DNA of 64,000 nucleotides from an uncultured Bacteroidia bacterium (GTDB lineage: Bacteria > Bacteroidota > Bacteroidia > NS11-12g > UBA9320): positions 209,113 through 273,112 of the forward strand of contig CALSTB010000001.1 in assembly GCA_943789165.1 (NCBI GenBank), written 5' to 3'. This document shows positions 19,051-62,264 of the stretch, piece by piece. A program made the position numbers and the translations under genes. The notes below the pieces were generated by a model. The model saw only the letters and a program-made list of their open reading frames with translations. It searched no databases and was not told where the DNA came from. Each line of letters starts with the position of its first letter. Position 1 is the stretch's first letter.

Positions 19051-19065
19051 ACGTTGCTACTTGTG

Positions 19066-19137
19066 TAGCCCCTAGGGGAATCGAACCCCTCTTTCCAGGA
19101 TGAAAACCTGGCGTCCTAACCGATAGACGAAGGGGCC
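19066..19137 (-). tRNA. tRNA-Glu (anticodon UUC), no encoded CCA
   Basis: Cloverleaf read by hand: acceptor GGCCCCT/AGGGGCT, anticodon stem CCAGG/CCTGG with loop TTTTCAT, and T-arm AGGGG-TTCGATT-CCCCT. Confidence 0.85.
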
Positions 19138-19246
19138 AAGTCATTGCAGTTTAAAGAAACAGTTGCTTGACGCGAAGGCCTTTAAATTACAAGGCTGCAA
19201 AGGAATAAATATTTCCATAAATCAACAACTAATTTTTTAAATATTT

Positions 19247-19254
19247 TACCTTTG
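19247..19254 (+). promoter_or_regulatory. Bacteroidetes-type -7 promoter box (TACCTTTG = TAnnTTTG) upstream of gap
   Basis: Motif match about 37 nt upstream of the gap ATG. It is mirrored at 60518-60525. Confidence 0.4.
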
Positions 19255-19290
19255 CAACCACTCATTTAAAAAACACAAAAATATCCTAGA

Positions 19291-20274
19291 ATGAAAGTAG
19301 CTATTAACGGTTTTGGACGCATAGGGCGATTGGCCTTCAAATGTCTTTTGCAAAAAGAAAATGTTGAAGTCGTAGCAATTAACGACCTCACTAACAATGC
19401 CACATTAGCTCATTTGTTGAAATATGATTCAGTGCAAGGAAGATTCAATGGAACTGTTGAGTCCAATGATGATTTTCTTATCGTGAATGGCAAACAAATT
19501 CGCGCTACTGCAGAACGCGACCCGGAAAAGTTACCATGGGGAGAACTAGGTATTGATGTCGTTTTAGAAAGTACAGGTTTTTTTAGAGATCCCATTGGAG
19601 CTCAAAAACACATCACTGCTGGGGCCAAAAAAGTGGTTATTTCTGCACCTGCATCTGGAGATATAAAAACGGTTGTGTTAGGTGTTAACGATCATACAAT
19701 GTCAGGCAATGAAACCATCGTATCAAATGCTAGTTGCACTACAAACTGTTTAGCGCCAATGGTTAAGGTGTTAGATGATTTATTTGGAGTTGAATCAGGG
19801 TTCATGACTACAGTTCATGCATATACGTCAGACCAACGTTTACAAGATGCACCTCACTCAGATTTAAGAAGAGCAAGGGCTGCCTCGGTTTCAATTATAC
19901 CAACAAGCACAGGTGCCGCAAAGGCAGTTGGACTGGTGTTACCACACCTAGCTGGCAAATTGAATGGAAACTCTCTTAGAGTGCCAATTCCTACTGGAAG
20001 TGCCACCGATTTTGTTGTCACCCTTAAGAAAGAAACCACAATTGAAGAAGTTAACGCTGCCTTTAAACGCGCTTCGGAAAATGAATTAAAAGGTATTCTC
20101 GAGTATACTGAAGACCCAATCGTTTCTATCGACATAGTAGGGAACCCACATTCATGTATTTTTGACTCTCTAACCACAATGGTTCAAGGCAATACAGTTA
20201 AAATTATGGGATGGTACGACAATGAAGCAGGTTATTCCAATCGAATCGCGGATTTAATTTCTAGAATTGGTTAA
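19291..20274 (+). CDS. gap: type I glyceraldehyde-3-phosphate dehydrogenase (copy 1)
   Basis: [21 protein letters not shown] active site and WYDNEAGYS. Confidence 0.95.
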
Positions 20275-20297
20275 AAATTAGTCAATAAAATATCGAG

Positions 20298-20329
20298 AAG
20301 TGCGTTTCTTTTGGAACGCACTTTTTTTT
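20298..20329 (+). terminator. intrinsic terminator between convergent gap and the T9SS protein gene
   Basis: Stem aagtgcgtttc-ttttg-gaacgcactt followed by T8. Confidence 0.8.
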
Positions 20330-20373
20330 CGCCATAAATAGACAAAATCTAAACAAACCTTAGTCGCAATTCA

Positions 20374-22476
20374 TTAATACACCACAATTCTTCGCCGATC
20401 CAAGACAATATCATCAACACTTATAACTACAAGGTAAGTAGACATTGATAATGAAATCGGTATTTTCCCATGTCCTTTTGATATTTCGATGTCGCTTGTA
20501 CTTAGATTCTTTCCAGTTACATCATATAAACGAACAGTGACATGTTGAATAGTATTAGAGAGATCAAAGTTTAAAGTGTTATCATAGTAATAGACCTTGG
20601 ATACAGGGTGCATAAGCTTTGAACTTGACACTAAAGTAAACTGCAGTTCATTTGACTTTCCAAAACAACCATTTTGGTCTTCAACGATACAATATACTTG
20701 ACCATTCTGGTCTGGTTCGTACGTAGAGTTTGTCTCATCGACGACTTTATTGCCGTTAAAGTACCATTGGTAACTTGACCAAGTCCCCACCACACTGCAA
20801 ATGTTTTTATTGAAGGTTATACTTGGAGTAGGCAATGAGTTAACAGTCACATGTGACGTCAATGTTTTGTAACAACCTGAGTCATTTGAAACAATAACGG
20901 AATATGAACTATTTATTTCTGGTGAAATGGTTCGAAATAAATTGGTGTTACTATTATCCTTCCATGTTGCAGATGTAGCGCCAGTTATACGTATGTCAAT
21001 TGAAGCACCTTTGCATATTGAAGTGTCAACAGGATCAATCTTAGGTTTTAGTGACTGGCATTCTGTAAGTTGAGCCACAAAGCCCAAAATTTTAGTTGTA
21101 TATGGTACGTTCTGACTTGAATTTCCGCTAAAGTTGAATGTCCTAGAATATACGCCACCCCAGTATAGTTGGTTATCTTCAGCGAGATGTACTGTATTTC
21201 CAGAATTGGTGTAAGATCCGGTACCGGATCCAACAATCAACCATTTGGCCTCTCCAGATGAATCATATTTTACTAAAAATGCTGCGTTATTCGATGCTCC
21301 TCCAGTCCTAGAGTTGCTTGTAGGGTCAAAGTCGCCGCTGCCAGCAAAAGTGCCACATACAAAAGTGTTTCCACCTTTATCCACCTGGCAATCATTAATC
21401 TGTAATGACACATTTGAGAAAGGTTCACTGTATTCCCACACTACATCTCCATTAGTTGAAACACTACTCATTTCAAATTTGGCTTCTCCAACTCCAGCAT
21501 AACTGCCATAACACATAATTTGGTCATACGCATTAACCCGTATTTTGCTAAAACGATGAAGGGTTGATGCTTTGACCCACCTAAGATTCATTTGAGTGTC
21601 TAAACTGCAGTAGAATGCCTTCCCAGACAAAGTCAATTCTTTGGTATTCGTAGAAGGGTCAAAGTCAACAGTTCCGTTTAATTGGCCACCGTAGTAGATG
21701 TTCCCATCTTTTTCAGCAAGAGAGGTAACTCTTACTATAGCATCTGAATTCCCAATGGTTGTTTTTGGATAGCGTACTGTCGTATTTGGATCCATTCGTA
21801 ACAAAAAAGAACCAGTTCTATTCAGCTGCTCGTTTCCAATGGAACCAAACCCACTGTAACCATATCTTGTAGAAGTATGGACAGACATCGCCCCGTGAGC
21901 CGAACAAAGCCAAATGATTTGCCCGTAGCCTGTAATGGCAAATTCCGACGTCTCTACATTGGTTTTTGTTTTGTTGCCTTGCGAATAGGCATACCACAAA
22001 TGATCACCGCTACTATTCAACTTGAGAATAAATGCCTGCTGACCATATCCAGAGGAGATAGCATCTTTTTGATTCTCAATGTCTAAATATGTTTTAGTAC
22101 TCTGATATAAACTACCTAAGTACACAAAACCTGAATCATCAGTTTCTAACTGAATGGGAGCTCGAGTTCCAGTACTAATTAATTTCTTAAAAAGTAATGA
22201 ACCATCAGGCTTATACGCTACAAAGTATAACGTATAAATAGATGCATATCCCTTGAGTAAATGAATCTTATTCACCCAAACACTGTCTTTAAAATAGCCC
22301 GCGACATAGGTGTTACCGCTATTGTCAGTAGTTATGGCTTCTACTGATGACGTACTGGAACTACCAACTTGATAACTAGAATCAATGGTTTGGGCACCAA
22401 CTATTGGAGTCATTAAACCAATAATTATCGTGGTTAAAAGTATTAGCCTTTTATATAGGGATTTCGACAATTTCAT
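20374..22476 (-). CDS. secreted beta-propeller/Ig-like repeat protein with T9SS C-terminal sorting domain (copy 1)
   Basis: Signal peptide, SBBP-like repeats (GNTYVAGYF, GNIYYGG, GNTFVCGTF) and a C-terminal beta-sandwich tail typical of T9SS CTDs. Confidence 0.7.
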   Translation of the reverse strand: MKLSKSLYKRLILLTTIIIGLMTPIVGAQTIDSSYQVGSSSTSSVEAITTDNSGNTYVAGYFKDSVWVNKIHLLKGYASIYTLYFVAYKPDGSLLFKKLISTGTRAPIQLETDDSGFVYLGSLYQSTKTYLDIENQKDAISSGYGQQAFILKLNSSGDHLWYAYSQGNKTKTNVETSEFAITGYGQIIWLCSAHGAMSVHTSTRYGYSGFGSIGNEQLNRTGSFLLRMDPNTTVRYPKTTIGNSDAIVRVTSLAEKDGNIYYGGQLNGTVDFDPSTNTKELTLSGKAFYCSLDTQMNLRWVKASTLHRFSKIRVNAYDQIMCYGSYAGVGEAKFEMSSVSTNGDVVWEYSEPFSNVSLQINDCQVDKGGNTFVCGTFAGSGDFDPTSNSRTGGASNNAAFLVKYDSSGEAKWLIVGSGTGSYTNSGNTVHLAEDNQLYWGGVYSRTFNFSGNSSQNVPYTTKILGFVAQLTECQSLKPKIDPVDTSICKGASIDIRITGATSATWKDNSNTNLFRTISPEINSSYSVIVSNDSGCYKTLTSHVTVNSLPTPSITFNKNICSVVGTWSSYQWYFNGNKVVDETNSTYEPDQNGQVYCIVEDQNGCFGKSNELQFTLVSSSKLMHPVSKVYYYDNTLNFDLSNTIQHVTVRLYDVTGKNLSTSDIEISKGHGKIPISLSMSTYLVVISVDDIVLDRRRIVVY

Positions 22477-22674
22477 TGAATTCGGATTAAGTCATGTGCG
22501 TTTGTCAAATCAAAAATACATTTTCAACGGAGTTTTCAAATTTCTAAAGGAAAACTGCAGGCAATTTGAATTTAAGTGTCAAACATACGATGACTGCAAA
22601 GCGATACAAATAATTCTAAAAGGTGATTTTGCAATTCAATTTCACAACAATCCTAAATCCCTTATATTTCCATC

Positions 22675-23946
22675 GTGTTACAAAAATTAAAAGTCCTTGG
22701 ACCAGGATTGCTATATGCCGGTGCGGCAGTTGGCGTTTCTCACATTGTACAATCCACCAAAGCCGGTGCAGAGTATGGTTACATTTTGATTGTAGGTATT
22801 ATTCTGGCACATATGTTCAAATACCCATTTTTCGAACTTGGACCCAAATACACGCAATTAACCAAGCAAAACCTGTTACACGGTTATGCAAAAATCGGAA
22901 ATTGGGCATTGGGTATCGTCGCAATTTTGACTGTCGCTACCATGTTTACTATTCAAGCTGCAGTAACAATAGTTACCGCAGGGTTGGCAATTAAAATCAC
23001 TGGGATAAACGTTACTCCAGTAATGATGAGCGCAGCTCTACTAACTATTTGTTTAGCCATCAGTGCGATAGGTAAGTTTTCAGTTTTGGATAAGCTCATG
23101 AAGGTAATCATGATCACCCTTTCCATTACCACCGTCATTGCGTTAGTCTCGTCATTTACCTATCAAATTCCAGCTGCTGATTTAAAACCAGGAAAGGTAT
23201 TCGACTTGTTCAATTCAATGGATGTCATTTTTTTAATCGCTTTTTTGGGTTGGATGCCGGCACCGCTAGACATTTCCATTTGGCACTCTATCTGGAGTGA
23301 AGAAAAGTTGGAGCAAAATCCGAAAGAAAAATCGACAGAATCTTTATTTGATTTTAGAGTAGGGTTCTGGGGAACAGCCATCCTAGGAATAGCTTTTTTA
23401 GTTTTAGGGGCCAATGTAATCTATGGTTCAGGATTAGAATTGGCATCAGGTGGCGTTGACTATGCTCAACAACTTATAGATATCTACGTTTCAAGCATAG
23501 GTGATTGGTCGTATTGGGTTATCGCTATCGCAGCCTTTACAACTATGTTCAGTACAACATTAACTTGCCTAGATGCGATGCCAAGAGTACTTGCTAAAAT
23601 TGGGAGGATATGGCAGTCTTCAACCATTCAACCAGAATTGGACTCTTCAGAAGTCATAACAGCTACCAGCGAAGATAGAAAACCTAGATTAATTTGGTTG
23701 TTCGTAATAGCGGTAGGAGCGTTGACCTTATTAAGGTTCTTCATTACGGATATGAAACAAATGGTCAACGTGGCGACAAGCTTTTCGTTCTTAACCGCTC
23801 CGGTTTTGGCTATTTTCGGTATTCTCATTGTGAAGCGACAACTTCCCACAAACTTTTGGCCTAAATGGAAATTTTTAATCGCATATTTAGGAGTAGCGTT
23901 TTTGGTTATACTCGGCGCCGTTTATATTCGTCTAGTTTTAGTGTAA
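22675..23946 (+). CDS. NRAMP-family divalent metal cation transporter (copy 1)
   Basis: LGPGLLYAGAAVGVSHIVQSTKAGAEYGY and about 11 TM segments. Confidence 0.8.
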   Translation: MLQKLKVLGPGLLYAGAAVGVSHIVQSTKAGAEYGYILIVGIILAHMFKYPFFELGPKYTQLTKQNLLHGYAKIGNWALGIVAILTVATMFTIQAAVTIVTAGLAIKITGINVTPVMMSAALLTICLAISAIGKFSVLDKLMKVIMITLSITTVIALVSSFTYQIPAADLKPGKVFDLFNSMDVIFLIAFLGWMPAPLDISIWHSIWSEEKLEQNPKEKSTESLFDFRVGFWGTAILGIAFLVLGANVIYGSGLELASGGVDYAQQLIDIYVSSIGDWSYWVIAIAAFTTMFSTTLTCLDAMPRVLAKIGRIWQSSTIQPELDSSEVITATSEDRKPRLIWLFVIAVGALTLLRFFITDMKQMVNVATSFSFLTAPVLAIFGILIVKRQLPTNFWPKWKFLIAYLGVAFLVILGAVYIRLVLV

Positions 23947-23947
23947 C

Positions 23948-24502
23948 ATGGATATACAAGAAGGTAAAATATTAATTTCTGATCCGTTTTTGCAAGATCC
24001 TAACTTTGCAAGAACCATTGTTTTGTTAACCCAACACGACGAAAACGGAAGTTTCGGTTTTGTCTTAAACAATGAAGTTGAGTTGTCGATTGATGAGGCA
24101 CTAAAAGATGACAAGCTTCCAAAACAAAACTTGTTTCAAGGAGGACCTGTCGAAATCCATACAGTTCATTTCTTGCACGGACTAGGTTCTGTGATTGAAC
24201 ATTCTAAAGAGGTAATTCCAGGTGTTTGGTGGGGTGCTGACTTTGACAAAGCACTCGACATTCTTCGAAAATCTCCTGACATGATTTCAAAATTTGTGTT
24301 TTTTATGGGTTATTCAGGCTGGGCAGCCGGACAACTTGCCGAGGAACTAGAGGAAGAAGCCTGGATTGTGTCAGACATAGGAAGCGCCATGGTCTTCAAC
24401 CAAAACCTTGATGCACAAGAACTGTGGAAAAAAGCAATGCGTAGTTTGGGAGGCAAATATGCAGTCTTGGCTGAAGGACCCACGGATCCAAGCCTAAACT
24501 AA
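23948..24502 (+). CDS. YqgE/AlgH family protein (copy 1)
   Basis: GKILISDPFLQDPNFARTIVLL..H and GYSGWAAGQLAEE motifs. Confidence 0.85.
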   Translation: MDIQEGKILISDPFLQDPNFARTIVLLTQHDENGSFGFVLNNEVELSIDEALKDDKLPKQNLFQGGPVEIHTVHFLHGLGSVIEHSKEVIPGVWWGADFDKALDILRKSPDMISKFVFFMGYSGWAAGQLAEELEEEAWIVSDIGSAMVFNQNLDAQELWKKAMRSLGGKYAVLAEGPTDPSLN

Positions 24503-24505
24503 TAC

Positions 24506-25186
24506 TCAATGACAACATTCAACTTCTCCAGTTTCTGGAGCAATATCAGGACTCAAATATGGAATGTTCAGACCAGAGCCTCTAATAACCAACAAAACAC
24601 CCAAAAGAATCATTGAGTAATTGACGTATTTATTAATATTCTGAAAAAAACGAAACTTCAATTTTTTACCGAGATAAGAACCAATTAAAAACATAGGCAA
24701 CGTTCCAATTCCAAAAAAGAACATAAACAATAGTCCTTCCGTCATACCAGGTTGACTTACAGATACTGCAGCTGCAGCGTAACTTAAACCACATGGAAGC
24801 AGGCCATTCAAAAATCCGATAAAAGGCAAGCTATTCTTTTTGTGATAGTATTGGCTCATGGTTTTGGATAACCGAGCTGATATCCACGACATCATTTGTT
24901 TGATACCTGGAATTCGATGTTTAAAAACAAAAAGTAATAAAAGAATACCAGAAACAAGCGCTATGTACTGTTGAAGGTCGAAGAGATGGACTGGTACCTT
25001 GACTAGACTGAATGCTAATCCCAACAACAAATAACCGGCAATGCGCCCTAAATGATAGATCAACAAATGAGGCGAGAGGCCTTTAATATTCCAATTGGTT
25101 TGCACTGAAAAAACCAATGGACCACACATTGCAGCACAATGTAGTGAGCCCCCAAGTCCTAAAAGTAGTGCAGCCCAAATCATCAA
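24506..25186 (-). CDS. TauE/SafE- or DsbD_2-like membrane protein of the cco accessory cluster (copy 1)
   Basis: HCAAMCGP motif, six TM segments, positioned after fixH. Confidence 0.7.
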   Translation of the reverse strand: MMIWAALLLGLGGSLHCAAMCGPLVFSVQTNWNIKGLSPHLLIYHLGRIAGYLLLGLAFSLVKVPVHLFDLQQYIALVSGILLLLFVFKHRIPGIKQMMSWISARLSKTMSQYYHKKNSLPFIGFLNGLLPCGLSYAAAAVSVSQPGMTEGLLFMFFFGIGTLPMFLIGSYLGKKLKFRFFQNINKYVNYSMILLGVLLVIRGSGLNIPYLSPDIAPETGEVECCH

Positions 25187-25605
25187 ATTACAAGCTTAGT
25201 CTTTTTGAAAAAGGGCTTCCCCTTAAGAACACCAGTAACCTCAATGTACCAAATTCCTGCTTGTAAATCAAGAATCTCAAGTGTGTAAGTATCCATTACC
25301 GACTTAGTACCATTGGAAAGTACTCGATCAAACTTACTATTGCCCATATGCTTAAGAACCACTTTGTCTACTTGTCCATCTTCCCCCAGTTGGATGACCA
25401 ACAATGGGTTGTGATAATCCATTTTGACATTAGCCGCAATTTCTTCAGCTTCCATAGTTTCGGTGTGCGCCTCACCTTTTTGGTAATAATCCTTTTCGTA
25501 AAGCGAATCGTTGTTATTGACCATGTAAAATCCTAACCCTACGATAAAGACGATAAAGACGATAAAGATCGTCATACTGATTATAAGCGCTTTCCCCCAA
25601 TTCAT
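25183..25605 (-). CDS. FixH family protein (copy 1, 3 x 9-bp repeat allele)
   Basis: N-terminal TM segment plus FixH-like domain. It overlaps ccoG and the TauE-like gene by 4 nt. Confidence 0.75.
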   Translation of the reverse strand: MNWGKALIISMTIFIVFIVFIVGLGFYMVNNNDSLYEKDYYQKGEAHTETMEAEEIAANVKMDYHNPLLVIQLGEDGQVDKVVLKHMGNSKFDRVLSNGTKSVMDTYTLEILDLQAGIWYIEVTGVLKGKPFFKKTKLVI

Positions 25606-27005
25606 TTCGTTATTTTAATTGGTCCAAAGAAAGTGGTTTTAAACGTTTTTAAAGGAGCGTTATCAATGAATACTTGTACTTCAACTGCCTGTTTATATCC
25701 CTGAACGTCACTTTTATCTTTTTTTAACATAAACACCCTTTTCATTTCACTATTAGCGGATAAGGCAGCGTTTGAATCGGCAACAACCAAGGTAAATCCT
25801 GGTGTTAATGCGACCATGCTAAAACGTTTGTCATCAAATGATTTGTTGACCATTTCGAGATTGTACATGTTGCTAACAATGTCGTTAGGCTCTTCAAAAT
25901 ATGTTTGACCTGGAATACGTAAAACGTGAGCTTCTACATCGGTGCGACTGGCTAATAAATAGGAGAAAACGCCAATTAGGATCACCATTACAACGGTGTA
26001 CGATATAATTCTAGGTGTAAATTTAAAACCCGTTCCGTTTCGTATATTATTAATCGAGTCAATGCGTATAAGACCTTTAGGTTTTTTGATTTTGTCCATA
26101 ACACTGTCGCACGCATTCATACACGCAGTACAGTTCACACACTCCAATTGCGTTCCATGTCTAATGTCTATACCAGTCGGACAAACATCAACACAAAGAT
26201 TGCAATCCACACAATCGCCTTTGTTTTCTTGATTTTCATTTTTTCGAATTTTCCCTCTTGGCTCACCGCGTTCATCGTCGTATGCCACTACCATACTGTT
26301 TGGGTCAAGCATTACTCCTTGTAACCTACCGTATGGACAAATCATGATACAGACCAATTCACGAAGCTTAGCAAAAACTAAATAAAATACGGTAGTAAAA
26401 ATTAATAGTCCAATAAGTGCGGGTAAACCTTCTAAAAAGGGACCGGAAATTTTTGCCCATAGATTTTCCCAACCAATGATATAAGCTAAAAATGTATTCG
26501 CGATTAAGAATGATACACCAAAAAATGCAATGAATTTTAGGGATTTCTTTGTAATCTTTTCTCGATTCCATGGCATGGCATCGAGCTTCTTTTGTTTGAT
26601 AGAATTCCCTTCGATAACATTTTCAATCTTTCGAAAAACCATCTCTAAAAAGATGGTTTGTGGACAAACCCAACCGCAGAAAACCCGGCCATATATGACG
26701 GTAAACAGCACAATAAACACAATGGCCGTTATCATCAGTAAGACCAAAAAATGGAAATCTTGTGGCCAAAAAGGCTGACCGAAAATCACAAATTGGCGGT
26801 CGATGACGTTCAGCAACAACAATGGATAGCCTTTGATTTTGATAAAGGGACCGAGAAAGAAAAAGGCTAGGTAAAACCAACTTAAGTACGTTCGGTACTT
26901 ATATAATTTACCTTTAATAATTTTAGGGTACAACCAGACGCGCTTACCTTCTTTGGTTTGATTGCCTAGATGTTCCCTAAAATTATCTTCTTTGGTATTA
27001 CTCAT
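25602..27005 (-). CDS. ccoG: cytochrome c oxidase accessory protein CcoG (copy 1)
   Basis: Two ferredoxin-type Cys clusters (CVDCNLCVDVCP, CVNCTACMNAC) and TM helices. Confidence 0.9.
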   Translation of the reverse strand: MSNTKEDNFREHLGNQTKEGKRVWLYPKIIKGKLYKYRTYLSWFYLAFFFLGPFIKIKGYPLLLLNVIDRQFVIFGQPFWPQDFHFLVLLMITAIVFIVLFTVIYGRVFCGWVCPQTIFLEMVFRKIENVIEGNSIKQKKLDAMPWNREKITKKSLKFIAFFGVSFLIANTFLAYIIGWENLWAKISGPFLEGLPALIGLLIFTTVFYLVFAKLRELVCIMICPYGRLQGVMLDPNSMVVAYDDERGEPRGKIRKNENQENKGDCVDCNLCVDVCPTGIDIRHGTQLECVNCTACMNACDSVMDKIKKPKGLIRIDSINNIRNGTGFKFTPRIISYTVVMVILIGVFSYLLASRTDVEAHVLRIPGQTYFEEPNDIVSNMYNLEMVNKSFDDKRFSMVALTPGFTLVVADSNAALSANSEMKRVFMLKKDKSDVQGYKQAVEVQVFIDNAPLKTFKTTFFGPIKITK

Positions 27006-28201: not shown

Positions 28202-28212
28202 ATACTTGGGCC

Positions 28213-54589: not shown

Positions 54590-55266
54590 TGATTTGGGCT
54601 GCACTACTTTTAGGACTTGGGGGCTCACTACATTGTGCTGCAATGTGTGGTCCATTGGTTTTTTCGGTGCAAACCAATTGGAATATTAAAGGCCTCTCGC
54701 CTCATTTGTTGATCTATCATTTTGGTCGTATTGCCGGTTATTTGTTGTTGGGATTAGCATTCAGTCTAGTAAAGGTCACAGTCCATCTTTTCGACCTTCA
54801 ACAGTACATAGCGCTTGTTTCTGGAATTCTTTTGTTACTATTTGTTTTTAAACATCGAATTCCTGGTATCAAACAAATGATGTCATGGATATCAGCTCGG
54901 TTATCCAAAACCATGAGCAAATACTATCACAAAAAGAATAGCTTGCCTTTTATCGGATTTTTGAATGGCCTGCTTCCATGTGGTTTAAGTTACGCTGCAG
55001 CTGCAGTATCTGTGAGTCAACCTGGTATGACGGAAGGACTATTGTTTATGTTCTTTTTTGGAATTGGAACGTTGCCCATGTTTTTAGTTGGTTCTTATCT
55101 CGGTAAAAAATTGAAGTTTCGTTTTTTTCAGAATATTAATAAATACATCAACTACTCAATGATCCTTCTTGGTGTTTTGTTGGTTATTAGAGGCTCTGGT
55201 CTGAACATTCCATATTTGAGTCCTGCTATTGCTCCAGAAACTGGAGAAGTTGAATGTTGCCATTGA
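54586..55266 (+). CDS. TauE/SafE- or DsbD_2-like membrane protein (copy 2)
   Basis: Six aa differences from copy 1. Confidence 0.7.
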   Translation: MMIWAALLLGLGGSLHCAAMCGPLVFSVQTNWNIKGLSPHLLIYHFGRIAGYLLLGLAFSLVKVTVHLFDLQQYIALVSGILLLLFVFKHRIPGIKQMMSWISARLSKTMSKYYHKKNSLPFIGFLNGLLPCGLSYAAAAVSVSQPGMTEGLLFMFFFGIGTLPMFLVGSYLGKKLKFRFFQNINKYINYSMILLGVLLVIRGSGLNIPYLSPAIAPETGEVECCH

Positions 55267-55269
55267 GTA

Positions 55270-55824
55270 TTAGTTTAGGCTTGGGTCCGTGGGTCCTTCA
55301 GCCAAGACTGCATATTTGCCTCCCAAACTACGCATTGCCTTTTTCCACAGTTCTTGTGCATCAAGGTTTTGGTTGAAGACCATGGCGCTTCCAATGTCTG
55401 AAACAATCCAGGCTTCTTCCTCTAGTTCCTCGGCAAGTTGTCCGGCTGCCCAGCCTGAATAACCCATAAAAAACACAAATTTTGAAATCATGTCAGGGGA
55501 TTTTCGAAGAATGTCGAGTGCTTTGTCAAAGTCAGCACCCCACCAAACACCTGGAATTACCTCTTTAGAATGTTCAATCACAGAACCTAGTCCGTGCAAG
55601 AAATGAACTGTATGGATTTCGACAGGTCCTCCTTGAAACAAGTTTTGTTTTGGAAGCTTGTCATCTTTTAGTGCCTCATCGATAGACAACTCAACTTCAT
55701 TGTTTAAGACAAAACCGAAACTTCCGTTTTCGTCATGTTGGGTTAACAAAACAATGGTTCTTGCAAAGTTAGGATCTTGCAAAAACGGATCAGAAATTAA
55801 TATTTTACCTTCTTGTATATCCAT
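55270..55824 (-). CDS. YqgE/AlgH family protein (copy 2)
   Basis: Protein identical to copy 1. Confidence 0.85.
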   Translation of the reverse strand: MDIQEGKILISDPFLQDPNFARTIVLLTQHDENGSFGFVLNNEVELSIDEALKDDKLPKQNLFQGGPVEIHTVHFLHGLGSVIEHSKEVIPGVWWGADFDKALDILRKSPDMISKFVFFMGYSGWAAGQLAEELEEEAWIVSDIGSAMVFNQNLDAQELWKKAMRSLGGKYAVLAEGPTDPSLN

Positions 55825-55825
55825 G

Positions 55826-57097
55826 TTACACTATAACTAGACGAATATAAACGGCGCCGAGTATAACCAAAAACGCTACTCCTAAATATGCGATTAAATA
55901 TTTCCATTTAGGCCAAAAGTTTGTGGGAAGTTGTCGCTTCACAATGAGAATACCGAAAATAGCCAAAACCGGAGCGGTTAAGAACGAAAAGCTTGTCGCC
56001 ACGTTGACCATTTGTTTCATATCCGTAATGAAGAACCTTAATAAGGTCAACGCTCCTACCGCTATTACGAACAACCAAATTAATCTAGGTTTTCTATCAT
56101 AGTTGGCGGCTATTATTGCTTCTAAAGAGTCCAATTCTGGTTGAATGGTTGAAGACTGCCATATCCTCCCAATTTTAGCAAGTACTCTTGGCATCGCATC
56201 GAGGCAAGTTAATGTTGTACTGAACATAGTTGTAAAGGCTGCGATAGCGATAACCCAATACGACCAATCACCTATGCTCGAAACGTAGATATCTATAAGT
56301 TGTTGAGCATAGTCAACGCCACCTGATGCCAATTCTAATCCTGAACCATAGATTACATTGGCCCCTAAAACTAAAAAAGCTATTCCTAGGATGGCTGTTC
56401 CCCAGAACCCTACTCTAAAATCAAATAAAGATTCTGTCGATTTTTCTTTCGGATTTTGCTCCAACTTTTCTTCACTCCAGATAGAGTGCCAAATGGAAAT
56501 GTCTAGCGGTGCCGGCATCCAACCCAAAAAAGCGATTAAAAAAATGACATCCATTGAATTGAACAAGTCGAATACCTTTCCTGGTTTTAAATCAGCAGCT
56601 GGAATTTGATAGGTAAATGACGAGACTAACGCAATGACGGTGGTAATGGAAAGGGTGATCATGATTACCTTCATGAGCTTATCCAAAACTGAAAACTTAC
56701 CTATCGCACTGATGGCTAAACAAATAGTTAGTAGAGCTGCGCTCATCATTACTGGAGTAACGTTTATCCCAGTGATTTTAATTGCCAACCCTGCGGTAAC
56801 TATTGTTACTGCAGCTTGAATAGTAAACATGGTAGCGACAGTCAAAATTGCGACGATACCCAATGCCCAATTTCCGATTTTTGCATAACCGTGTAACAGG
56901 TTTTGCTTGGTTAATTGCGTGTATTTGGGTCCAAGTTCGAAAAATGGGTATTTGAACATATGTGCCAGAATAATACCTACAATCAAAATGTAACCATACT
57001 CTGCACCGGCTTTGGTGGATTGTACAATGTGAGAAACGCCAACTGCCGCACCGGCATATAGCAATCCTGGTCCAAGGACTTTTAATTTTTGTAACAC
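55826..57097 (-). CDS. NRAMP-family divalent metal cation transporter (copy 2)
   Basis: Differs from copy 1 mainly in one patch (SLEAIIAANYD versus SSEVITATSED). Confidence 0.8.
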   Translation of the reverse strand: MLQKLKVLGPGLLYAGAAVGVSHIVQSTKAGAEYGYILIVGIILAHMFKYPFFELGPKYTQLTKQNLLHGYAKIGNWALGIVAILTVATMFTIQAAVTIVTAGLAIKITGINVTPVMMSAALLTICLAISAIGKFSVLDKLMKVIMITLSITTVIALVSSFTYQIPAADLKPGKVFDLFNSMDVIFLIAFLGWMPAPLDISIWHSIWSEEKLEQNPKEKSTESLFDFRVGFWGTAILGIAFLVLGANVIYGSGLELASGGVDYAQQLIDIYVSSIGDWSYWVIAIAAFTTMFSTTLTCLDAMPRVLAKIGRIWQSSTIQPELDSLEAIIAANYDRKPRLIWLFVIAVGALTLLRFFITDMKQMVNVATSFSFLTAPVLAIFGILIVKRQLPTNFWPKWKYLIAYLGVAFLVILGAVYIRLVIV

Positions 57098-57295
57098 GAT
57101 GGAAATATAAGGGATTTAGGATTGTTGTGAAATTGAATTGCAAAATCACCTTTTAGAATTATTTGTATCGCTTTGCAGTCATCGTATGTTTGACACTTAA
57201 ATTCAAATTGCCTGCAGTTTTCCTTTAGAAATTTGAAAACTCCGTTGAAAATGTATTTTTGATTTAACAAACGCACATGACTTAATCCGAATTCA

Positions 57296-59398
57296 ATGAA
57301 ATTGTCGAAATCCCTATATAAAAGGCTAATACTTTTAACCACGATAATTATTGGTTTAATGACTCCAATAGTTGGTGCCCAAACCATTGATTCTAGTTAT
57401 CAAGTTGGTAGTTCCAGTACGTCATCAGTAGAAGCCATAACTACTGACAATAGCGGTAACACCTATGTCGCGGGCTATTTTAAAGACAGTGTTTGGGTGA
57501 ATAAGATTCATTTACTCAAGGGATATGCATCTATTTATACGTTATACTTTGTAGCGTATAAGCCTGATGGTTCATTACTTTTTAAGAAATTAATTAGTAC
57601 TGGAACTCGAGCTCCCATTCAGTTAGAAACTGATGATTCAGGTTTTGTGTACTTAGGTAGTTTATATCAGAGTACTAAAACATATTTAGACATTGAGAAT
57701 CAAAAAGATGCTATCTCCTCTGGATATGGTCAGCAGGCATTTATTCTCAAGTTGAATAGTAGCGGTGATCATTTGTGGTATGCCTATTCGCAAGGCAACA
57801 AAACAAAAACCAATGTAGAGACGTCGGAATTTGCCATTACAGGCTACGGGCAAATCATTTGGCTTTGTTCGGCTCACGGGGCGATGTCTGTCCATACTTC
57901 TACAAGATATGGTTACAGTGGGTTTGGTTCCATTGGAAACGAGCAGCTGAATAGAACTGGTTCTTTTTTGTTACGAATGGATCCAAATACGACAGTACGC
58001 TATCCAAAAACAACCATTGGGAATTCAGATGCTATAGTAAGAGTTACCTCTCTTGCTGAAAAAGATGGGAACATCTACTACGGTGGCCAATTAAACGGAA
58101 CTGTTGACTTTGACCCTTCTACGAATACCAAAGAATTGACTTTGTCTGGGAAGGCATTCTACTGCAGTTTAGACACTCAAATGAATCTTAGGTGGGTCAA
58201 AGCATCAACCCTTCATCGTTTTAGCAAAATACGGGTTAATGCGTATGACCAAATTATGTGTTATGGCAGTTATGCTGGAGTTGGAGAAGCCAAATTTGAA
58301 ATGAGTAGTGTTTCAACTAATGGAGATGTAGTGTGGGAATACAGTGAACCTTTCTCAAATGTGTCATTACAGATTAATGATTGCCAGGTGGATAAAGGTG
58401 GAAACACTTTTGTATGTGGCACTTTTGCTGGCAGCGGCGACTTTGACCCTACAAGCAACTCTAGGACTGGAGGAGCATCGAATAACGCAGCATTTTTAGT
58501 AAAATATGATTCATCTGGAGAGGCCAAATGGTTGATTGTTGGATCCGGTACCGGATCTTACACCAATTCTGGAAATACAGTACATCTCGCTGAAGATAAC
58601 CAACTATACTGGGGTGGCGTATATTCTAGGACATTCAACTTTAGCGGAAATTCAAGTCAGAACGTACCATATACAACTAAAATTTTGGGCTTTGTGGCTC
58701 AACTTACAGAATGCCAGTCACTAAAACCTAAGATTGATCCTGTTGACACTTCAATATGCAAAGGTGCTTCAATTGACATACGTATAACTGGCGCTACATC
58801 TGCAACATGGAAGGATAATAGTAACACCAATTTATTTCGAACCATTTCACCAGAAATAAATAGTTCATATTCCGTTATTGTTTCAAATGACTCAGGTTGT
58901 TACAAAACATTGACGTCACATGTGACTGTTAACTCATTGCCTACTCCAAGTATAACCTTCAATAAAAACATTTGCAGTGTGGTGGGGACTTGGTCAAGTT
59001 ACCAATGGTACTTTAACGGCAATAAAGTCGTCGATGAGACAAACTCTACGTACGAACCAGACCAGAATGGTCAAGTATATTGTATCGTTGAAGACCAAAA
59101 TGGTTGTTTTGGAAAGTCAAATGAACTGCAGTTTACTTTAGTGTCAAGTTCAAAGCTTATGCACCCTGTATCCAAGGTCTATTACTATGATAACACTTTA
59201 AACTTTGATCTCTCTAATACTATTCAACATGTCACTGTTCGTTTATATGATGTAACTGGAAAGAATCTAAGTACAAGCGACATCGAAATATCAAAAGGAC
59301 ATGGGAAAATACCGATTTCATTATCAATGTCTACTTACCTTGTAGTTATAAGTGTTGATGATATTGTCTTGGATCGGCGAAGAATTGTGGTGTATTAA
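57296..59398 (+). CDS. secreted beta-propeller/Ig-like repeat protein with T9SS CTD (copy 2)
   Basis: Protein identical to copy 1. Confidence 0.7.
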   Translation: MKLSKSLYKRLILLTTIIIGLMTPIVGAQTIDSSYQVGSSSTSSVEAITTDNSGNTYVAGYFKDSVWVNKIHLLKGYASIYTLYFVAYKPDGSLLFKKLISTGTRAPIQLETDDSGFVYLGSLYQSTKTYLDIENQKDAISSGYGQQAFILKLNSSGDHLWYAYSQGNKTKTNVETSEFAITGYGQIIWLCSAHGAMSVHTSTRYGYSGFGSIGNEQLNRTGSFLLRMDPNTTVRYPKTTIGNSDAIVRVTSLAEKDGNIYYGGQLNGTVDFDPSTNTKELTLSGKAFYCSLDTQMNLRWVKASTLHRFSKIRVNAYDQIMCYGSYAGVGEAKFEMSSVSTNGDVVWEYSEPFSNVSLQINDCQVDKGGNTFVCGTFAGSGDFDPTSNSRTGGASNNAAFLVKYDSSGEAKWLIVGSGTGSYTNSGNTVHLAEDNQLYWGGVYSRTFNFSGNSSQNVPYTTKILGFVAQLTECQSLKPKIDPVDTSICKGASIDIRITGATSATWKDNSNTNLFRTISPEINSSYSVIVSNDSGCYKTLTSHVTVNSLPTPSITFNKNICSVVGTWSSYQWYFNGNKVVDETNSTYEPDQNGQVYCIVEDQNGCFGKSNELQFTLVSSSKLMHPVSKVYYYDNTLNFDLSNTIQHVTVRLYDVTGKNLSTSDIEISKGHGKIPISLSMSTYLVVISVDDIVLDRRRIVVY

Positions 59399-59442
59399 TG
59401 AATTGCGACTAAGGTTTGTTTAGATTTTGTCTATTTATGGCG

Positions 59443-59474
59443 AAAAAAAAGTGCGTTCCAAAAGAAACGCACTT
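59443..59474 (-). terminator. mirror copy of the gap terminator
   Basis: Reverse complement of 20298..20329. Confidence 0.8.
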
Positions 59475-59497
59475 CTCGATATTTTATTGACTAATTT

Positions 59498-60481
59498 TTA
59501 ACCAATTCTAGAAATTAAATCCGCGATTCGATTGGAATAACCTGCTTCATTGTCGTACCATCCCATAATTTTAACTGTATTGCCTTGAACCATTGTGGTT
59601 AGAGAGTCAAAAATACATGAATGTGGGTTCCCTACTATGTCGATAGAAACGATTGGGTCTTCAGTATACTCGAGAATACCTTTTAATTCATTTTCCGAAG
59701 CGCGTTTAAAGGCAGCGTTAACTTCTTCAATTGTGGTTTCTTTCTTAAGGGTGACAACAAAATCGGTGGCACTTCCAGTAGGAATTGGCACTCTAAGAGA
59801 GTTTCCATTCAATTTGCCAGCTAGGTGTGGTAACACCAGTCCAACTGCCTTTGCGGCACCTGTGCTTGTTGGTATAATTGAAACCGAGGCAGCCCTTGCT
59901 CTTCTTAAATCTGAGTGAGGTGCATCTTGTAAACGTTGGTCTGACGTATATGCATGAACTGTAGTCATGAACCCTGATTCAACTCCAAATAAATCATCTA
60001 ACACCTTAACCATTGGCGCTAAACAGTTTGTAGTGCAACTAGCATTTGATACGATGGTTTCATTGCCTGACATTGTATGATCGTTAACACCTAACACAAC
60101 CGTTTTTATATCTCCAGATGCAGGTGCAGAAATAACCACTTTTTTGGCCCCAGCAGTGATGTGTTTTTGAGCTCCAATGGGATCTCTAAAAAAACCTGTA
60201 CTTTCTAAAACGACATCAATACCTAGTTCTCCCCATGGTAACTTTTCCGGGTCGCGTTCTGCAGTAGCGCGAATTTGTTTGCCATTCACGATAAGAAAAT
60301 CATCATTGGACTCAACAGTTCCATTGAATCTTCCTTGCACTGAATCATATTTCAACAAATGAGCTAATGTGGCATTGTTAGTGAGGTCGTTAATTGCTAC
60401 GACTTCAACATTTTCTTTTTGCAAAAGACATTTGAAGGCCAATCGCCCTATGCGTCCAAAACCGTTAATAGCTACTTTCAT
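59498..60481 (-). CDS. gap: type I glyceraldehyde-3-phosphate dehydrogenase (copy 2)
   Basis: Protein identical to copy 1. Confidence 0.95.
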
Positions 60482-60634
60482 TCTAGGATATTTTTGTGTT
60501 TTTTAAATGAGTGGTTGCAAAGGTAAAATATTTAAAAAATTAGTTGTTGATTTATGGAAATATTTATTCCTTTGCAGCCTTGTAATTTAAAGGCCTTCGC
60601 GTCAAGCAACTGTTTCTTTAAACTGCAATGACTT

Positions 60635-60706
60635 GGCCCCTTCGTCTATCGGTTAGGACGCCAGGTTTTCATCCTGGAAAGAGGGGTTCGATTCCCCTAG
60701 GGGCTA
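60635..60706 (+). tRNA. tRNA-Glu (UUC), copy 2, followed by an encoded CCA (60707-60709)
   Basis: Identical to the left copy through the discriminator base. The downstream sequence differs (CCAAAGCGG versus CACAAGTAG). Confidence 0.85.
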
Positions 60707-62264
60707 CCAAAGCGGAATATGTGAGTTTATCTTCACTATTCCGCTTTTCCTTTTCTACGGATTTCCCCGTTATATCTAGGATACAGCGCACCGCTGGGTT
60801 CAAACCAAAAGTTCGATAACTGTTATTTTCAGGATCAAGCCAAATTCCGCTTGGGTAGACCGCTTTAAGCAACTTTGATCTTTCTGTTGATTTTGATAAC
60901 TGCCAGGTTTTCTGAAGTTTAGACATCAAATCAGTGGCCTGCTTGATTACCTGATCAGGGTTCGATAATGAAATTCCACATTTGTCGATTTCTTCTAATA
61001 TTGCCACCAATTCTTCTCTATATTTAGCAGCGTACTTATCAAATAAGTCTTTGGTAATTTCTCCTATTACAAATCGTTCTTCCAACATCTCTATCTTCCT
61101 CTCAACCTTTGTTTTGTTACTGCGATACTGTTTTAGCCCATCACCAGAGTCTACTTTTAAGCTTTCGAGCTTTCTTTTGAGCTGTTCTTGGATGGGTGTA
61201 ACGTATTTTGCATCTATCTGAAGATTGGAAAGCGTCTGTTCCCAGTTTCGGTTTAACACCTTAGCACTTCTATTGACTTTACAACCTTTCGTATTGCACT
61301 TGTAGTAATATAACTTCTTTGGTCGCACAAAGTAACCCGTCATTGGTTTGCTGCACTTTGAGCAATGCATGTGCCTCTTTAAGGGTAGATGATCCAACAT
61401 TTTTGATTTTGGCTTTTTGGCAGGTCTGATTTGAAGCATGCCATTCAGCTTCAAGAACTCATTACGTGTGATGAGTCCTTCATGATTGCCCTTTACAATC
61501 TCTCCATTTAATGCCTGATGGGCCATGAAACCGCAATAAAATACGTTTCTACATAACTCAGATAATCTTTTATGACTCACCTTTAGACCTCTTGTTGACA
61601 GCCACTTACTAATTTCAGTAAATTCGTAGTTGTACTTAATCTTTCTTCTAAATGCTGCTGCCAGCAATCTACCTTCTTTTGTGATGACTATTTTCTTTTG
61701 TCCACCTTCTGTGATCTTCTTGTACCCTAAGGGTGGTTTGGTAACCCAATGTCCTTGTAATAGCTTTTCACGGGTGCCCGCCATGGACTTTAAGCGCCTT
61801 TGCTGATTCTCATATTGTGAGAACATAAAGTAAATTCCCTGTTGCAATTCCCCAGCAGCTGTAGAGGCGTCTACAGGTTGGGTTACAGATATAATCTCAG
61901 TACCTATCTTTCTGAGTTGTTCTGAAATGTAAATAGCATTGGGACCACTTCTTGAAAAGCGATCCATCGAGTATACCACAATGGCATCTACCTTATGTCT
62001 TTTGACAAAGGCAATCATTTGTTTGAACTGAACCCGTTCATCACTCTTGGCGCTTTCATAAGTCCCACCAAATTCCCCTATTATCTGCAAATCATTGTTC
62101 ATTGCAAATTGCTTGATGTGCTTTGCTTGCGTAAAGAGACTCTGATTGTTATCGGCCTGTTCCTTGGTCGATACACGGGTATACATGACCGCTGTAATGG
62201 CCTTCCCTTTGTTGTTCTTTTGCCCTTTGGCAAAGACTGCCAATTGTTGATCTACATGCTGCAT
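60669..62264 (-). CDS. large serine recombinase (integrase type)
   Basis: N-terminal resolvase catalytic domain (AVMYTRVSTKEQ, YSMDRFSRS), recombinase domain, Zn-ribbon (CSKCSKPM...YYKCNTKGC) and coiled coil. The last 12-13 codons are tRNA-Glu sequence. Confidence 0.85.
   Translation of the reverse strand: MQHVDQQLAVFAKGQKNNKGKAITAVMYTRVSTKEQADNNQSLFTQAKHIKQFAMNNDLQIIGEFGGTYESAKSDERVQFKQMIAFVKRHKVDAIVVYSMDRFSRSGPNAIYISEQLRKIGTEIISVTQPVDASTAAGELQQGIYFMFSQYENQQRRLKSMAGTREKLLQGHWVTKPPLGYKKITEGGQKKIVITKEGRLLAAAFRRKIKYNYEFTEISKWLSTRGLKVSHKRLSELCRNVFYCGFMAHQALNGEIVKGNHEGLITRNEFLKLNGMLQIRPAKKPKSKMLDHLPLKRHMHCSKCSKPMTGYFVRPKKLYYYKCNTKGCKVNRSAKVLNRNWEQTLSNLQIDAKYVTPIQEQLKRKLESLKVDSGDGLKQYRSNKTKVERKIEMLEERFVIGEITKDLFDKYAAKYREELVAILEEIDKCGISLSNPDQVIKQATDLMSKLQKTWQLSKSTERSKLLKAVYPSGIWLDPENNSYRTFGLNPAVRCILDITGKSVEKEKRNSEDKLTYSALVAPRGIEPLFPG

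Follow-up and report, generated by a model that had tools for sequence, protein, structure and literature searches.

The closest described counterparts of the locus examined here are the inverted duplications of Escherichia coli O157:H7, in which chromosomal blocks of 220 kb and 140.5 kb, bordered by prophage/IS66 repeats, have been inserted in inverted orientation into the Stx2c prophage (PMC8743559). Long inverted repeats, such as rrn operons, IS copies and prophages, are also known to support inversions via homologous recombination, as described in S. pyogenes (PMC11602124) and in a broader survey (PMC9297083), and inverted repeats within one replichore have been reported to be under-represented (PMC9297083). 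The window analysed here, a 64,000-nt stretch of a metagenome contig, shares with the E. coli cases a chromosomal block bounded by mobile repeats whose second, inverted copy lies inside another mobile element; as assembled, it is likewise strain- or clone-specific, merodiploid and a source of long inverted homology. The pieces duplicated here are 8-18 kb and come from a metagenome contig, whereas the E. coli duplications were found in isolates and confirmed by optical mapping or PFGE. Moreover, in place of prophage/IS66 repeats the flanks here consist of IS3-family copies and solo ends of 60 nt, and the two copies are different population alleles, an indication that the extra one was imported from a sister strain and not copied in situ.

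Self-BLAST and a repeat search aligned positions 19061-27169 with 60710-52612 over 8109 columns at 98.85% identity (83 mismatches and 2 gaps), far above the chance level and in opposite orientations, which makes the pair a long inverted repeat, or segmental inverted duplication. The 8.1-kb inverted duplication proposed in the first-pass annotation is therefore confirmed as real in the contig. Its proposed gene content was also recovered, namely gap, a 700-aa protein, Nramp, AlgH/YqgE (DUF179), a DsbD_2/TauE-like protein, FixH, CcoG/FixG and the ccoP tail. The "T9SS" label given to the 700-aa protein is unsupported, as the domain search returned no Por_Secre_tail match for it and only weak PKD/SBBP matches. 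A second inverted pair (36593-38265 versus 62328-64000, 7 mismatches) continues past the window end. The coordinates of all features are listed in Table 1.

Table 1. Features of the duplicated locus, in window coordinates
Feature	Coordinates	Strand	Remarks
Mosaic block, 28,815 nt	10465..39279		contains the entire left arm; replaces 369 nt present in other strains
Solo IS end, 63 nt	10465..10527	+	IS B-like version of IRL; adjoins the truncated radical-SAM gene
Solo IS end, 60 nt	12121..12180	-	equals the IRL of IS A, inverted; borders the low-GC island
Low-GC island	12181-17380		encodes a small invertase-like serine recombinase (16001-16627)
Native tRNA-Glu flank (empty attachment site)	18010..19064		kept beside the left copy; matches given in the text
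tRNA-Glu(UUC), left copy	19065..19137	-	CCA unencoded
Left arm (secondary copy, "L" haplotype)	19065..27169	+	tRNA-Glu, gap, 700-aa protein, Nramp, AlgH, DsbD_2-like, FixH (140 aa), CcoG, ccoP tail
IS A, 1483-bp IS3-family element	27170..28652	-	orfA HTH_Tnp_1 + orfB rve; TG...CA ends
X-Y, second copy of serine-recombinase element cargo	28653..38265	+	without the recombinase gene
Solo IS end, 60 nt	38258..38317	+	IRR; truncates both Y and the integrase gene
Tyrosine integrase, N-terminal fragment	38273..39016	-	Phage_int_SAM_5, Arm-DNA-bind_5
Native segment ftsH-kbl-menA-menC-T9SS protein-EamA-yicC-gmk-nadD-o145	39280..50330		parental orientation relative to both flanks
IS B	50331..51813	-	81% identity with IS A; member of the same family
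Full-length ccoP (303 aa)	51842..52753	+	final 142 nt inside the repeat
Right arm (native locus, "r" haplotype)	52612..60707	-	FixH 137 aa
tRNA-Glu(UUC), right copy	60635..60709	+	CCA arises where the recombinase element joins
Large serine recombinase, 531 aa	60669..62264	-	end of the integrated element; ORF stops inside the tRNA
Y' copy, native position of recombinase-element cargo	62328..64000	-	partner of 36593-38265; cut by the window end

The surroundings of the two arms were compared with those in other genomes. Two related species (L001 and L003) have the order nadD-o145-(6-8 kb)-ccoP...gap-tRNA-Glu in single copy, and the context of the right arm recurs, with one copy beside nadD, in more than six other, independent assemblies, at least six of them from this species. 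By this comparison the right arm is the native, ancestral tRNA-Glu...ccoP locus. It had been remarked that the chromosome keeps two copies of these genes; this does not hold, since all of the above genomes have one and the extra copy lies in a contig-specific mosaic. Similarly, the 25-kb central segment does contain ftsH, kbl, menA/C, gmk and nadD as first described, but about 12 kb of it is inserted mobile DNA.

The 369 nt replaced by the mosaic block comprise the 3' end of a radical-SAM gene and 15 nt of intergenic sequence. Four contigs (L029, L030, L031 and L032, L031 being from the window's own sample) align up to window position 10464 and again from 39280 onwards, and between these positions they have an intact 345-aa radical-SAM gene; the outer breakpoints are only 369 nt apart in native coordinates, as would be expected if they were the two ends of one event. 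Of the contigs compared, the window contig is the only one with the four junctions that anchor the block at the radical-SAM/ftsH site, and the 28.8-kb mosaic of mobile DNA has likewise been seen in no other. The integrase fragment is what is left of an integrative element located between the radical-SAM gene and ftsH. The X-Y cargo encodes a 377/381-aa secreted protein, a 170-aa plus 1964-aa repeat surface protein with a T9SS tail and a 318/323-aa ORF; it is homologous to recombinase-adjoining DNA in L019, L021 and L022, and its junction with the IS also occurs in L041. The block is ordered IRL...chunk 1...IS A...chunk 2...IRR, and thus, like a composite transposon or an IS-bounded translocatable unit, it has chromosomal chunks bracketed by IS ends in direct orientation. 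A composite transposon consists of two functional IS copies around a cargo, with a target-site duplication in an otherwise intact target. In contrast, the outer IS "copies" here are 60-63-nt remnants, no target-site duplication is present at any IS or outer end, and the target has lost 369 nt, so that simple transposition of a composite element was rejected. The junction sequences hold no clean transposition signature, target-site duplications included, for the arrival of the block.

The outer boundary of the repeat had been placed one base after the tRNA discriminator. This position is correct, as arm identity ends after C74 of tRNA-Glu, one base beyond the discriminator, but what it marks is the integration point of the recombinase element in the right copy, the left flank being native. 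The tRNA end reads GGGGCTAC-AC in the left copy and GGGGCTAC-CA in the right, and CCA is thus encoded by the right copy only. The flank kept beside the left copy matches the tRNA-Glu downstream flank of the related species L001 (97% over 142 nt) and strain L024 (about 1 kb). The tRNA/native flank junction was found in L014/L026, L024 and L001, while the tRNA/recombinase junction was found in seven contigs; hence both occupied and empty alleles of this site exist, as is characteristic of an integrative element. The 531-aa recombinase contains Resolvase (PF00239, 7e-26) and Recombinase (PF07508, 4e-6) domains and belongs to the large serine recombinases, which are about 450-700 aa long and combine a Resolvase catalytic domain with a Recombinase domain; its best NCBIfam matches are XisF/CcrB, under the equivalog cut-offs. 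As in integrative elements of the XisF/Ccr/phage type, the recombinase lies at the very end of a strain-variable element with a precise junction, and empty-site alleles exist, here in other strains and a related species. The sharp outer boundary is thus a large-serine-recombinase element integrated at the tRNA 3' end of the right copy and not the end of the duplication; the element accounts for this boundary only and not for the duplication itself. Its target distinguishes it from those systems, the 3' end of a tRNA being more typical of tyrosine integrases, and its att sites lie partly beyond the window. The far end (attR) is outside the window and its 10-kb flanks, and the native flank beyond it was not found in a scan of metagenome contigs.

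At the inner boundary, the repeat ends exactly at the end of IS A, which cuts ccoP, as the initial reading had held. Members of the IS3 family have an orfA (HTH) and an orfB (DDE/rve), a length of about 1.2-1.6 kb and terminal inverted repeats TG...CA; the element found here, with HTH_Tnp_1 and rve domains, 1483 bp and the ends TGTAC...GTATACA, belongs to this family. Its transposase scored 185 bits against the NCBIfam transpos_IS3 model (cut-off 160) and 210 bits against the IS481 model, below the threshold of 224. No target-site duplication was seen at IS A (flanked by gat and ctt) or IS B (flanked by tag and gaa), and both copies are located at rearrangement or deletion junctions. The ccoP'/IS A junction is found, identical, in L008 and L022/L031, including at the native locus of another strain, and L022 retains 59 nt of native DNA missing in IS B strains. 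The IS A and IS B junctions are therefore independent truncations, and the left copy cannot derive from the resident right locus. In a relative, the position of IS B is taken up by about 8 kb of DNA in which a ccoI-like ATPase and a fused ccoNO are encoded. These ccoP neighbours are missing from the window locus, so that the "cco maturation genes" are orphans there.

The differences between the arms are distributed strongly unevenly. A single mismatch falls in 19065-23492, a near-perfect stretch of 4.4 kb, against about 80 substitutions in 23493-27169 (about 97.7% identity), so that the inner 3.7 kb holds all of the differences except one. They include a 9-bp indel in fixH (three versus two copies of ACGATAAAG) and a dense patch at 23648-23673 with 9 differences in 26 bp; the two arms are distinct sequences and not one block placed twice, in agreement with the first-pass annotation. 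The 92 arm-distinguishing sites all lie within 22506-27049 and are mainly synonymous (52 versus 24 codons), and the ORFs of the arms, those of the left arm included, are all intact. The L haplotype is also present at the native locus in L024/L029, and apart from such divergent patches the population shows 0-2 SNPs/kb. Flanks, haplotypes and inner junctions occur in the population as r with the recombinase, r with the native flank, L with the native flank, r with IS A and L with IS A. The arms thus correspond to two alleles segregating at a single native locus of a nearly clonal population, and their SNP pattern reflects polymorphism of this locus instead of divergence after duplication.

Given that the arms are different alleles of one native locus, we consider it probable that the extra copy entered from a sister lineage, became fixed through IS-mediated or homologous recombination and was not copied from the resident locus; less probably, the contig joins the alleles of two strains. 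In one strain of this uncultured, nearly clonal Bacteroidota population, in which the right arm is the ancestral locus, the radical-SAM 3' end located 12 kb upstream of the native locus would have been replaced by a mosaic bounded and punctuated by IS3-family ends and terminating in the truncated tyrosine integrase. This mosaic would carry two inverted chromosome pieces, one running from the tRNA-Glu flank to mid-ccoP at IS A and the other being the recombinase-element cargo. The extra allele has the L haplotype, the IS A-truncated ccoP and an empty recombinase site, and the resident allele the r haplotype, full ccoP beside IS B and the inserted recombinase element; it is this difference that makes a sister-lineage origin the most likely one. 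The extra block presumably has no dedicated function. The window contig is continuous across both arms, and independent short-read contigs (L008 and L039-L041) are 100% identical to sequence specific to the window and extend across two internal junctions. Look-ups and a metagenome scan gave no match for the junction-spanning ORFs, and no independent long contig joining the left arm to the right arm was found. Rearrangements of this kind, driven by mobile elements, are common, although the duplication could still be a strain-mixing assembly error. A more detailed proposal, that the contig is correct and represents a natural "heterozygous" merodiploid in which a 10-18-kb sister-strain piece, running from the native tRNA-Glu flank to the IS A-truncated ccoP, and the recombinase cargo were captured between IS3-family copies inside the integrase element and now lie inverted at a distance of 25 kb from the resident allele, seems to us rather improbable.

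An assembly error, to which we give a small but appreciable chance, would mean that two alleles of the locus from co-occurring strains were joined via the near-identical ftsH-nadD segment: strain 1 would have the block, with its sole tRNA-Glu...ccoP' copy moved upstream of ftsH, and strain 2 the normal nadD-IS B-ccoP-arm-recombinase arrangement. Each arm does equal an allele that occurs alone at a single native locus elsewhere, the left arm even carrying the native tRNA-Glu flank, and the confinement of the insertion-locking junctions to the window contig fits this reading too. The sample contains at least one further strain of the species (contig_13075) and gives a separate 29-kb contig of another strain at the locus; in this near-clonal population strains hardly differ in the 11-kb native spacer, which only very long reads could phase. 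On the other hand, the join would need an additional, unobserved genome with the native block removed and re-inserted inverted, that is, more events than a simple gain, and the deletion junction then expected downstream of nadD-o145 is absent from the contigs compared. The outer breakpoints fit a single coherent insertion instead, and a long-read assembler would not be misled by solo IS ends that measure only 60 nt and have unique junction sequences beside them. It is also conceivable, although we think it quite unlikely, that the locus was duplicated within the genome by an IS-mediated or template-switch event and that homologous recombination with DNA of other strains later gave one copy the other haplotype, the recombinase element or the IS junctions. 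The presence of every flank/haplotype/inner-junction combination in the population implies that recombination reshuffles the region freely, and the divergent patches resemble imported tracts. Several additional replacement events would nevertheless be required, because the ccoP truncation of the left copy (IS A at the 52612-equivalent) is mutually exclusive with the resident IS B and full ccoP and occurs in another strain at its native locus. In addition, the duplicated pieces are permuted and not nested as in a fold-back or tandem-inversion duplication: on the left the arm precedes X-Y, whereas the order on the right is arm', recombinase, Y', X'. Tandem inversion duplications, reportedly known from Salmonella through the work of Kugelberg, Reams and Roth, have adjacent copies, head-to-head or tail-to-tail, whose order is nested and palindromic and whose junctions lie at short quasi-palindromes; here the copies are 25 kb apart with IS ends as junctions, and this class was rejected. 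A programmed inversion switch driven by the small invertase-like or the large serine recombinase, both encoded less than 3 kb from where the arms end on the outside, was also considered, but it is hardly credible. In switches of the Hin/Gin/Mpi type, a promoter or gene segment beside the invertase gene lies between short inverted cross-over sites, whereas each arm consists of 8 kb of housekeeping genes, the arm structure is missing in all other strains and relatives compared, and no inverted isomer was seen in these contigs. The 208-aa small recombinase scored 68 bits against the 272-bit cut-off of the Mpi invertase model, and the large one is explained as the integrase of the present/absent element at the tRNA.

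The first-pass annotation had also regarded the arms as substrates for RecA-dependent inversion. Like the repeats behind known inversions, they are long, nearly identical and inverted, a classic substrate, with 4.4 kb interrupted by one mismatch. In contrast to those systems, inversion has not been observed here, the contig is in the parental orientation, and the interval spans only 25 kb on one side of the chromosome, apparently not symmetric about ori/ter. Combinations specific to an inverted isomer (native flank-arm-ccoP-IS B...ftsH-int' or recombinase-arm-IS A-X) were absent from the fetched contigs, in which this strain is thinly sampled; L024/L029 and L022/L031 terminate instead in the intact radical-SAM gene or nadD. 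Homologous recombination between the arms could, judging from their sequence, invert the 25-kb interval or exchange alleles.

For the organism, the sister-lineage import that we favour would make the cell merodiploid for tRNA-Glu, gap, Nramp, AlgH and the orphan cco accessory genes, and the arms would supply 8 kb of homology, 4.4 kb of it virtually perfect, for RecA-type inversion or allele exchange. If the merodiploid reading is true, recombination between the alleles would invert ftsH-nadD and bring flank, haplotype and IS junction into new combinations, and the combinations of r or L with the native flank or recombinase and with IS A or IS B, all of which the population shows, could be the footprint of allele-exchange intermediates in an otherwise clonal lineage.

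A repeat search and self-BLAST recovered the near-identical inverted duplication described in the first-pass annotation, aligning 19061-27169 with 60710-52612 over 8109 columns at 98.85% identity, with 83 mismatches and two gaps. Annotation of both arms returned the genes previously listed (tRNA-Glu, gap, a 700-aa protein, nramp, yqgE, a TauE-like gene, fixH, ccoG, and the ccoP tail), except that the 700-aa protein had been labelled a T9SS protein and no sorting domain was detectable in it; its family assignment was without significance, with weak SBBP/PKD matches at most. The gene for this protein (called as 679 aa; 20374-22476 and 57296-59398) lies between nramp and gap and is missing from that position in the two related species L001 and L003, and is thus a lineage-specific insertion inside the arm. 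Every arm ORF is intact in the left and right copies alike, and a tRNA-Glu(UUC) was identified by ARAGORN and Rfam at each outer end of the repeat; the Rfam sweep found nothing besides these two tRNAs. The 9-bp indel noted earlier between the arms corresponds to three versus two copies of ACGATAAAG within fixH. The mismatches are unevenly placed, with 1 in the 4.4 kb of 19065-23492 versus about 80 substitutions in 23493-27169. Codon differences between the two arm sequences comprise 52 synonymous versus 24 nonsynonymous changes, a mostly synonymous pattern as expected of functional alleles.

L001 and L003, whose CcoG proteins are 87% and 80% identical to that of the window, respectively, carry yicC-gmk-nadD-o145-(6-8 kb)-ccoP-ccoG-fixH-dsbD2-algH-nramp-gap-tRNA-Glu in single copy (o145 is an ORF beside nadD). 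Moreover, over six independent assemblies from the window's species share the context of the right arm (kbl...nadD-o145-IS B-ccoP-arm-tRNA). These data indicate that the right arm is the ancestral locus. The left arm falls wholly within a 28,815-nt block that stands in place of 369 native nt, with breakpoints set by nucleotide alignment at 10464/10465 and 39279/39280. In four other contigs, one of them from the window's sample, an intact 345-aa radical-SAM gene lies upstream of ftsH, preceded by genes for PBP1A and a 992-aa histidine kinase, and the same genes occupy 4334-10525 of the window. The native ftsH-nadD segment has the parental orientation with respect to both flanks.

Arms, insertion sequences, and components of the 28.8-kb block, in window coordinates
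Feature	Position	Remarks
Solo IS end, 63 nt	10465-10527	adjoins truncated radical-SAM gene
MORN-repeat lipoprotein gene		between the 63-nt and the inverted 60-nt solo IS ends
Solo IS end, 60 nt, inverted	12121-12180	
Low-GC (29%) island	12181-17380	encodes a small invertase-like serine recombinase and YidD-like, SPFH/Band-7, and TPR proteins
Truncated YgjP-like gene		between the low-GC island and the native tRNA-Glu flank
Native tRNA-Glu flank, about 1 kb		followed by left arm, then IS A
Left arm	19065-27169	
IS A	27170-28652	adjoins inner end of left arm
X-Y, 9.6 kb	28653-38265	secreted protein, 1964-aa repeat surface protein with T9SS tail, 318/323-aa ORF
Solo IS end, 60 nt	38258-38317	between X-Y and the integrase fragment
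Tyrosine integrase, N-terminal fragment		right end of block
IS B	50331-51813	
Right arm	52612-60707	native locus, opposite in orientation to left arm

IS A (1483 bp) and IS B, which are 81% identical and in direct orientation relative to each other, belong to the IS3 family, as judged from an orfA HTH, an orfB rve domain, TG...CA ends, and a score over the cut-off of the NCBIfam IS3 model. No target-site duplication was found at IS A, IS B, or the solo IS ends, indicating that these elements mark rearrangement junctions rather than simple insertions. On this ground, and because 369 nt of the target were deleted, we rejected 10465-28652, 27170-38317, and 10465-38317 as units of simple or composite transposition. 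The solo ends coincide exactly with the non-coding terminus outside the transposase genes; remnants of random deletions would not be expected to be so uniform in length, and these ends might reflect a family of non-autonomous (MITE-like or cargo-carrying) derivatives, of which 10465-12180, with the MORN lipoprotein gene between two inverted IRL ends, would be an example. The low-GC island is itself flanked by a 195-nt direct repeat (93%; 11926-12120 versus 17381-17574), which spans the region upstream of the truncated YgjP-like ORF along with the first 9 codons of that ORF; a solo IS end cuts into the first copy of the repeat.

The X-Y segment is a second copy of the DNA beside the right-hand serine recombinase, and in other strains the homologous X'-Y' comes after the recombinase gene. 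A second inverted repeat pairs 36593-38265 with the reverse complement of 62328-64000 (1673 nt, 7 mismatches) and is cut by the window end; judging from other strains' contigs, it probably runs on for several kb across the giant surface-protein gene, in which case the genome would hold two long inverted-repeat pairs in non-nested order. This giant gene (30416-36776) contains tandem repeats at 30938-31184 and 32814-34150, with 81-bp and 150-bp (about 9 copies) units, and its product, with a T9SS tail, is very variable across strains (1964, 1665, and 1582+787 aa). A frameshift has probably divided a single gene into the 170-aa and 1964-aa ORFs of the window, since the product in contig_20234 begins at the start of the 170-aa ORF. 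Downstream of the 318/323-aa ORF, a 42-bp AT-rich tandem repeat (21-bp sub-period) occurs at 37953-38046 and 62547-62640, where strain alignments break, which suggests copy-number variation.

The arm differences were compared against 40 related contigs. Assemblies of different samples differ by 0-2 SNPs per kb, making the population almost clonal, with divergence limited to patches. The inner 3.7 kb of the arm forms one such patch with two haplotypes: r, carried by the window's right arm and by the native locus of most assemblies, and L, carried by the left arm, and by the native locus of contig_16409 and of three short contigs (L008, L042, and L043). A search for long independent contigs with an L-allele CcoG or Nramp turned up short contigs alone. 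We rejected gene conversion as the source of the uneven identity along the arms, because no variation among strains occurs in the outer 4.4 kb and the inner 3.7 kb is polymorphic population-wide. Other sharply bounded patches, with 20-87 SNPs/kb, lie in the EamA-yicC-gmk region (46000-50300 versus contigs L031/L032) and in menC (44000-45000 versus L030/L012), and look like homologous-recombination imports.

At the inner boundary, the right arm runs on into a complete 303-aa ccoP (51842-52753), with IS B 28 nt upstream. The ccoP'/IS junction of the left copy is identical in L008 (L haplotype) and in contig_13075 (r haplotype, from the window's sample), where 59 nt of native sequence separate IS A from o145-nadD; in strains with IS B these 59 nt are missing, whereas the 5' half of ccoP is present. 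One locus has thus been truncated independently at the IS A and the IS B junctions, and the left copy, being the IS A version, was not copied from the resident right locus, which is the IS B version. In L001 (1047-8889), the interval from o145 to ccoP encodes a DUF2807 protein, a K+ channel, a methyltransferase, a T9SS protein, a CcoI-like P-type ATPase, and a fused ccoNO (712 aa). This interval of roughly 8 kb is missing in the window's species, with IS B in its place in the window (50331-51842) and IS A in contig_13075. Given the independence of the two junctions, the catalytic genes of the cbb3 oxidase appear to have been lost from the locus twice, or lost once with the junction then remodelled, which would leave ccoP, ccoG, and fixH orphaned unless ccoNO is located elsewhere.

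At the outer boundary, identity ends after C74, one base beyond the discriminator, as had been reported from the sequence. The left tRNA copy runs GGGGCTAC-AC... and the right GGGGCTAC-CA..., CCA being encoded in the right copy only, and a distinct hairpin follows each. Directly outside the right tRNA lies a gene (60669-62264) for a 531-aa large serine recombinase with Resolvase and Recombinase domains (XisF/Ccr-like). Its ORF ends inside tRNA-Glu (60635-60709), about 39 nt into the complementary strand, so the C-terminal 13 codons are host-derived when the element is integrated; the element junction also changes the tRNA's unencoded 3' end (…ACAC) to encoded CCA. The 142 nt downstream of the L001 tRNA-Glu match the window's left flank at 97%, and a junction census found the tRNA joined to native flank in L001, L014/26, and contig_16409 and to the recombinase in seven contigs. 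These results indicate that the recombinase element is a strain-variable insertion at the tRNA 3' end, with the left copy as the empty site. Because the left flank is native and the element was inserted at the right copy, the tRNA boundary was rejected as the duplication end or its att site; the sharp boundary is the integration point, and duplicated native DNA continues past the tRNA, at least to about 18010.

Overall, we regard as the probable explanation a strain-specific, IS-bounded mosaic insertion that carries the native tRNA-Glu...ccoP' block as a second allele, together with duplicated recombinase-element cargo. The second allele would have come from a sister lineage, by import or recombination, and been fixed, inverted, at an integrase-element site adjoining ftsH; the block would have no dedicated function, leaving a merodiploid cell with 8 kb of inverted homology. 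A close precedent is E. coli O157:H7, in which prophage/IS-flanked inverted duplications were inserted, inverted, in the Stx2c prophage (PMC8743559). The permuted block order and the 25 kb between the copies spoke against duplication of the fold-back or tandem-inversion type, and against a palindromic read artefact, and these were dismissed.

The main competing explanation, unlikely in our estimate, is that the contig is a chimera of two strains' alleles. Each arm is an allele found alone at a single native locus elsewhere, at least one further strain is present in the same sample, the 11-kb spacer is nearly identical across strains, and the four junctions tying the block to the radical-SAM/ftsH site were seen in this contig alone. 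One metagenome scan each with the 39279/39280 junction and the native flank gave no match; the radical-SAM'/IS end and int'/IS end ORFs (int', truncated integrase), a 150-aa flank ORF, and the MORN protein had no record in look-ups that were uninformative, the window's own contig apparently being absent too. However, the breakpoints lie 369 nt apart in native coordinates, as from one event. The junctions have unique sequences, and the shortness of the solo IS ends means that a long-read assembler would not be misled by them. Window-specific sequence is also matched at 100% identity by independent short-read contigs, which span two internal junctions, and a single-copy alternative needs more rearrangements as well as a deletion junction, which was not observed. 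In situ duplication with later allele replacement is still less probable, because the ccoP truncations exclude each other and the duplicated blocks are permuted rather than nested.

The first-pass annotation had proposed the arms as substrates for inversion of the intervening segment. Their potential as a recombination substrate stands, whereas the nature of the structure, the reason for its boundaries, and its supposed unusualness needed correction. In principle, 8 kb of inverted homology would be capable of RecA-type inversion (cf. PMC9297083, PMC11602124); a programmed invertase switch is very improbable. No isomer-specific junction combination was seen in any contig compared. Contig_13075 and contig_16409 were considered as the two junctions of an inverted isomer and rejected, since both continue into normal chromosome, reaching an intact radical-SAM gene or, right after IS A, nadD.

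The structure reveals no new mechanism or system and is a further instance of known mobile-element-driven rearrangement, with a strain-mixing artefact being a real possibility. For metagenomes of near-clonal, multi-strain populations, it cautions that an apparent inverted duplication whose nearly identical copies differ by SNPs may represent two alleles of one locus, and that SNPs between copies do not prove that both reside in one cell. If real, it would be a natural example of how IS and integrative elements can equip a genome with a second allele of its housekeeping genes, making the cell transiently merodiploid and supplying a resident substrate on which inversion and allele exchange can act.
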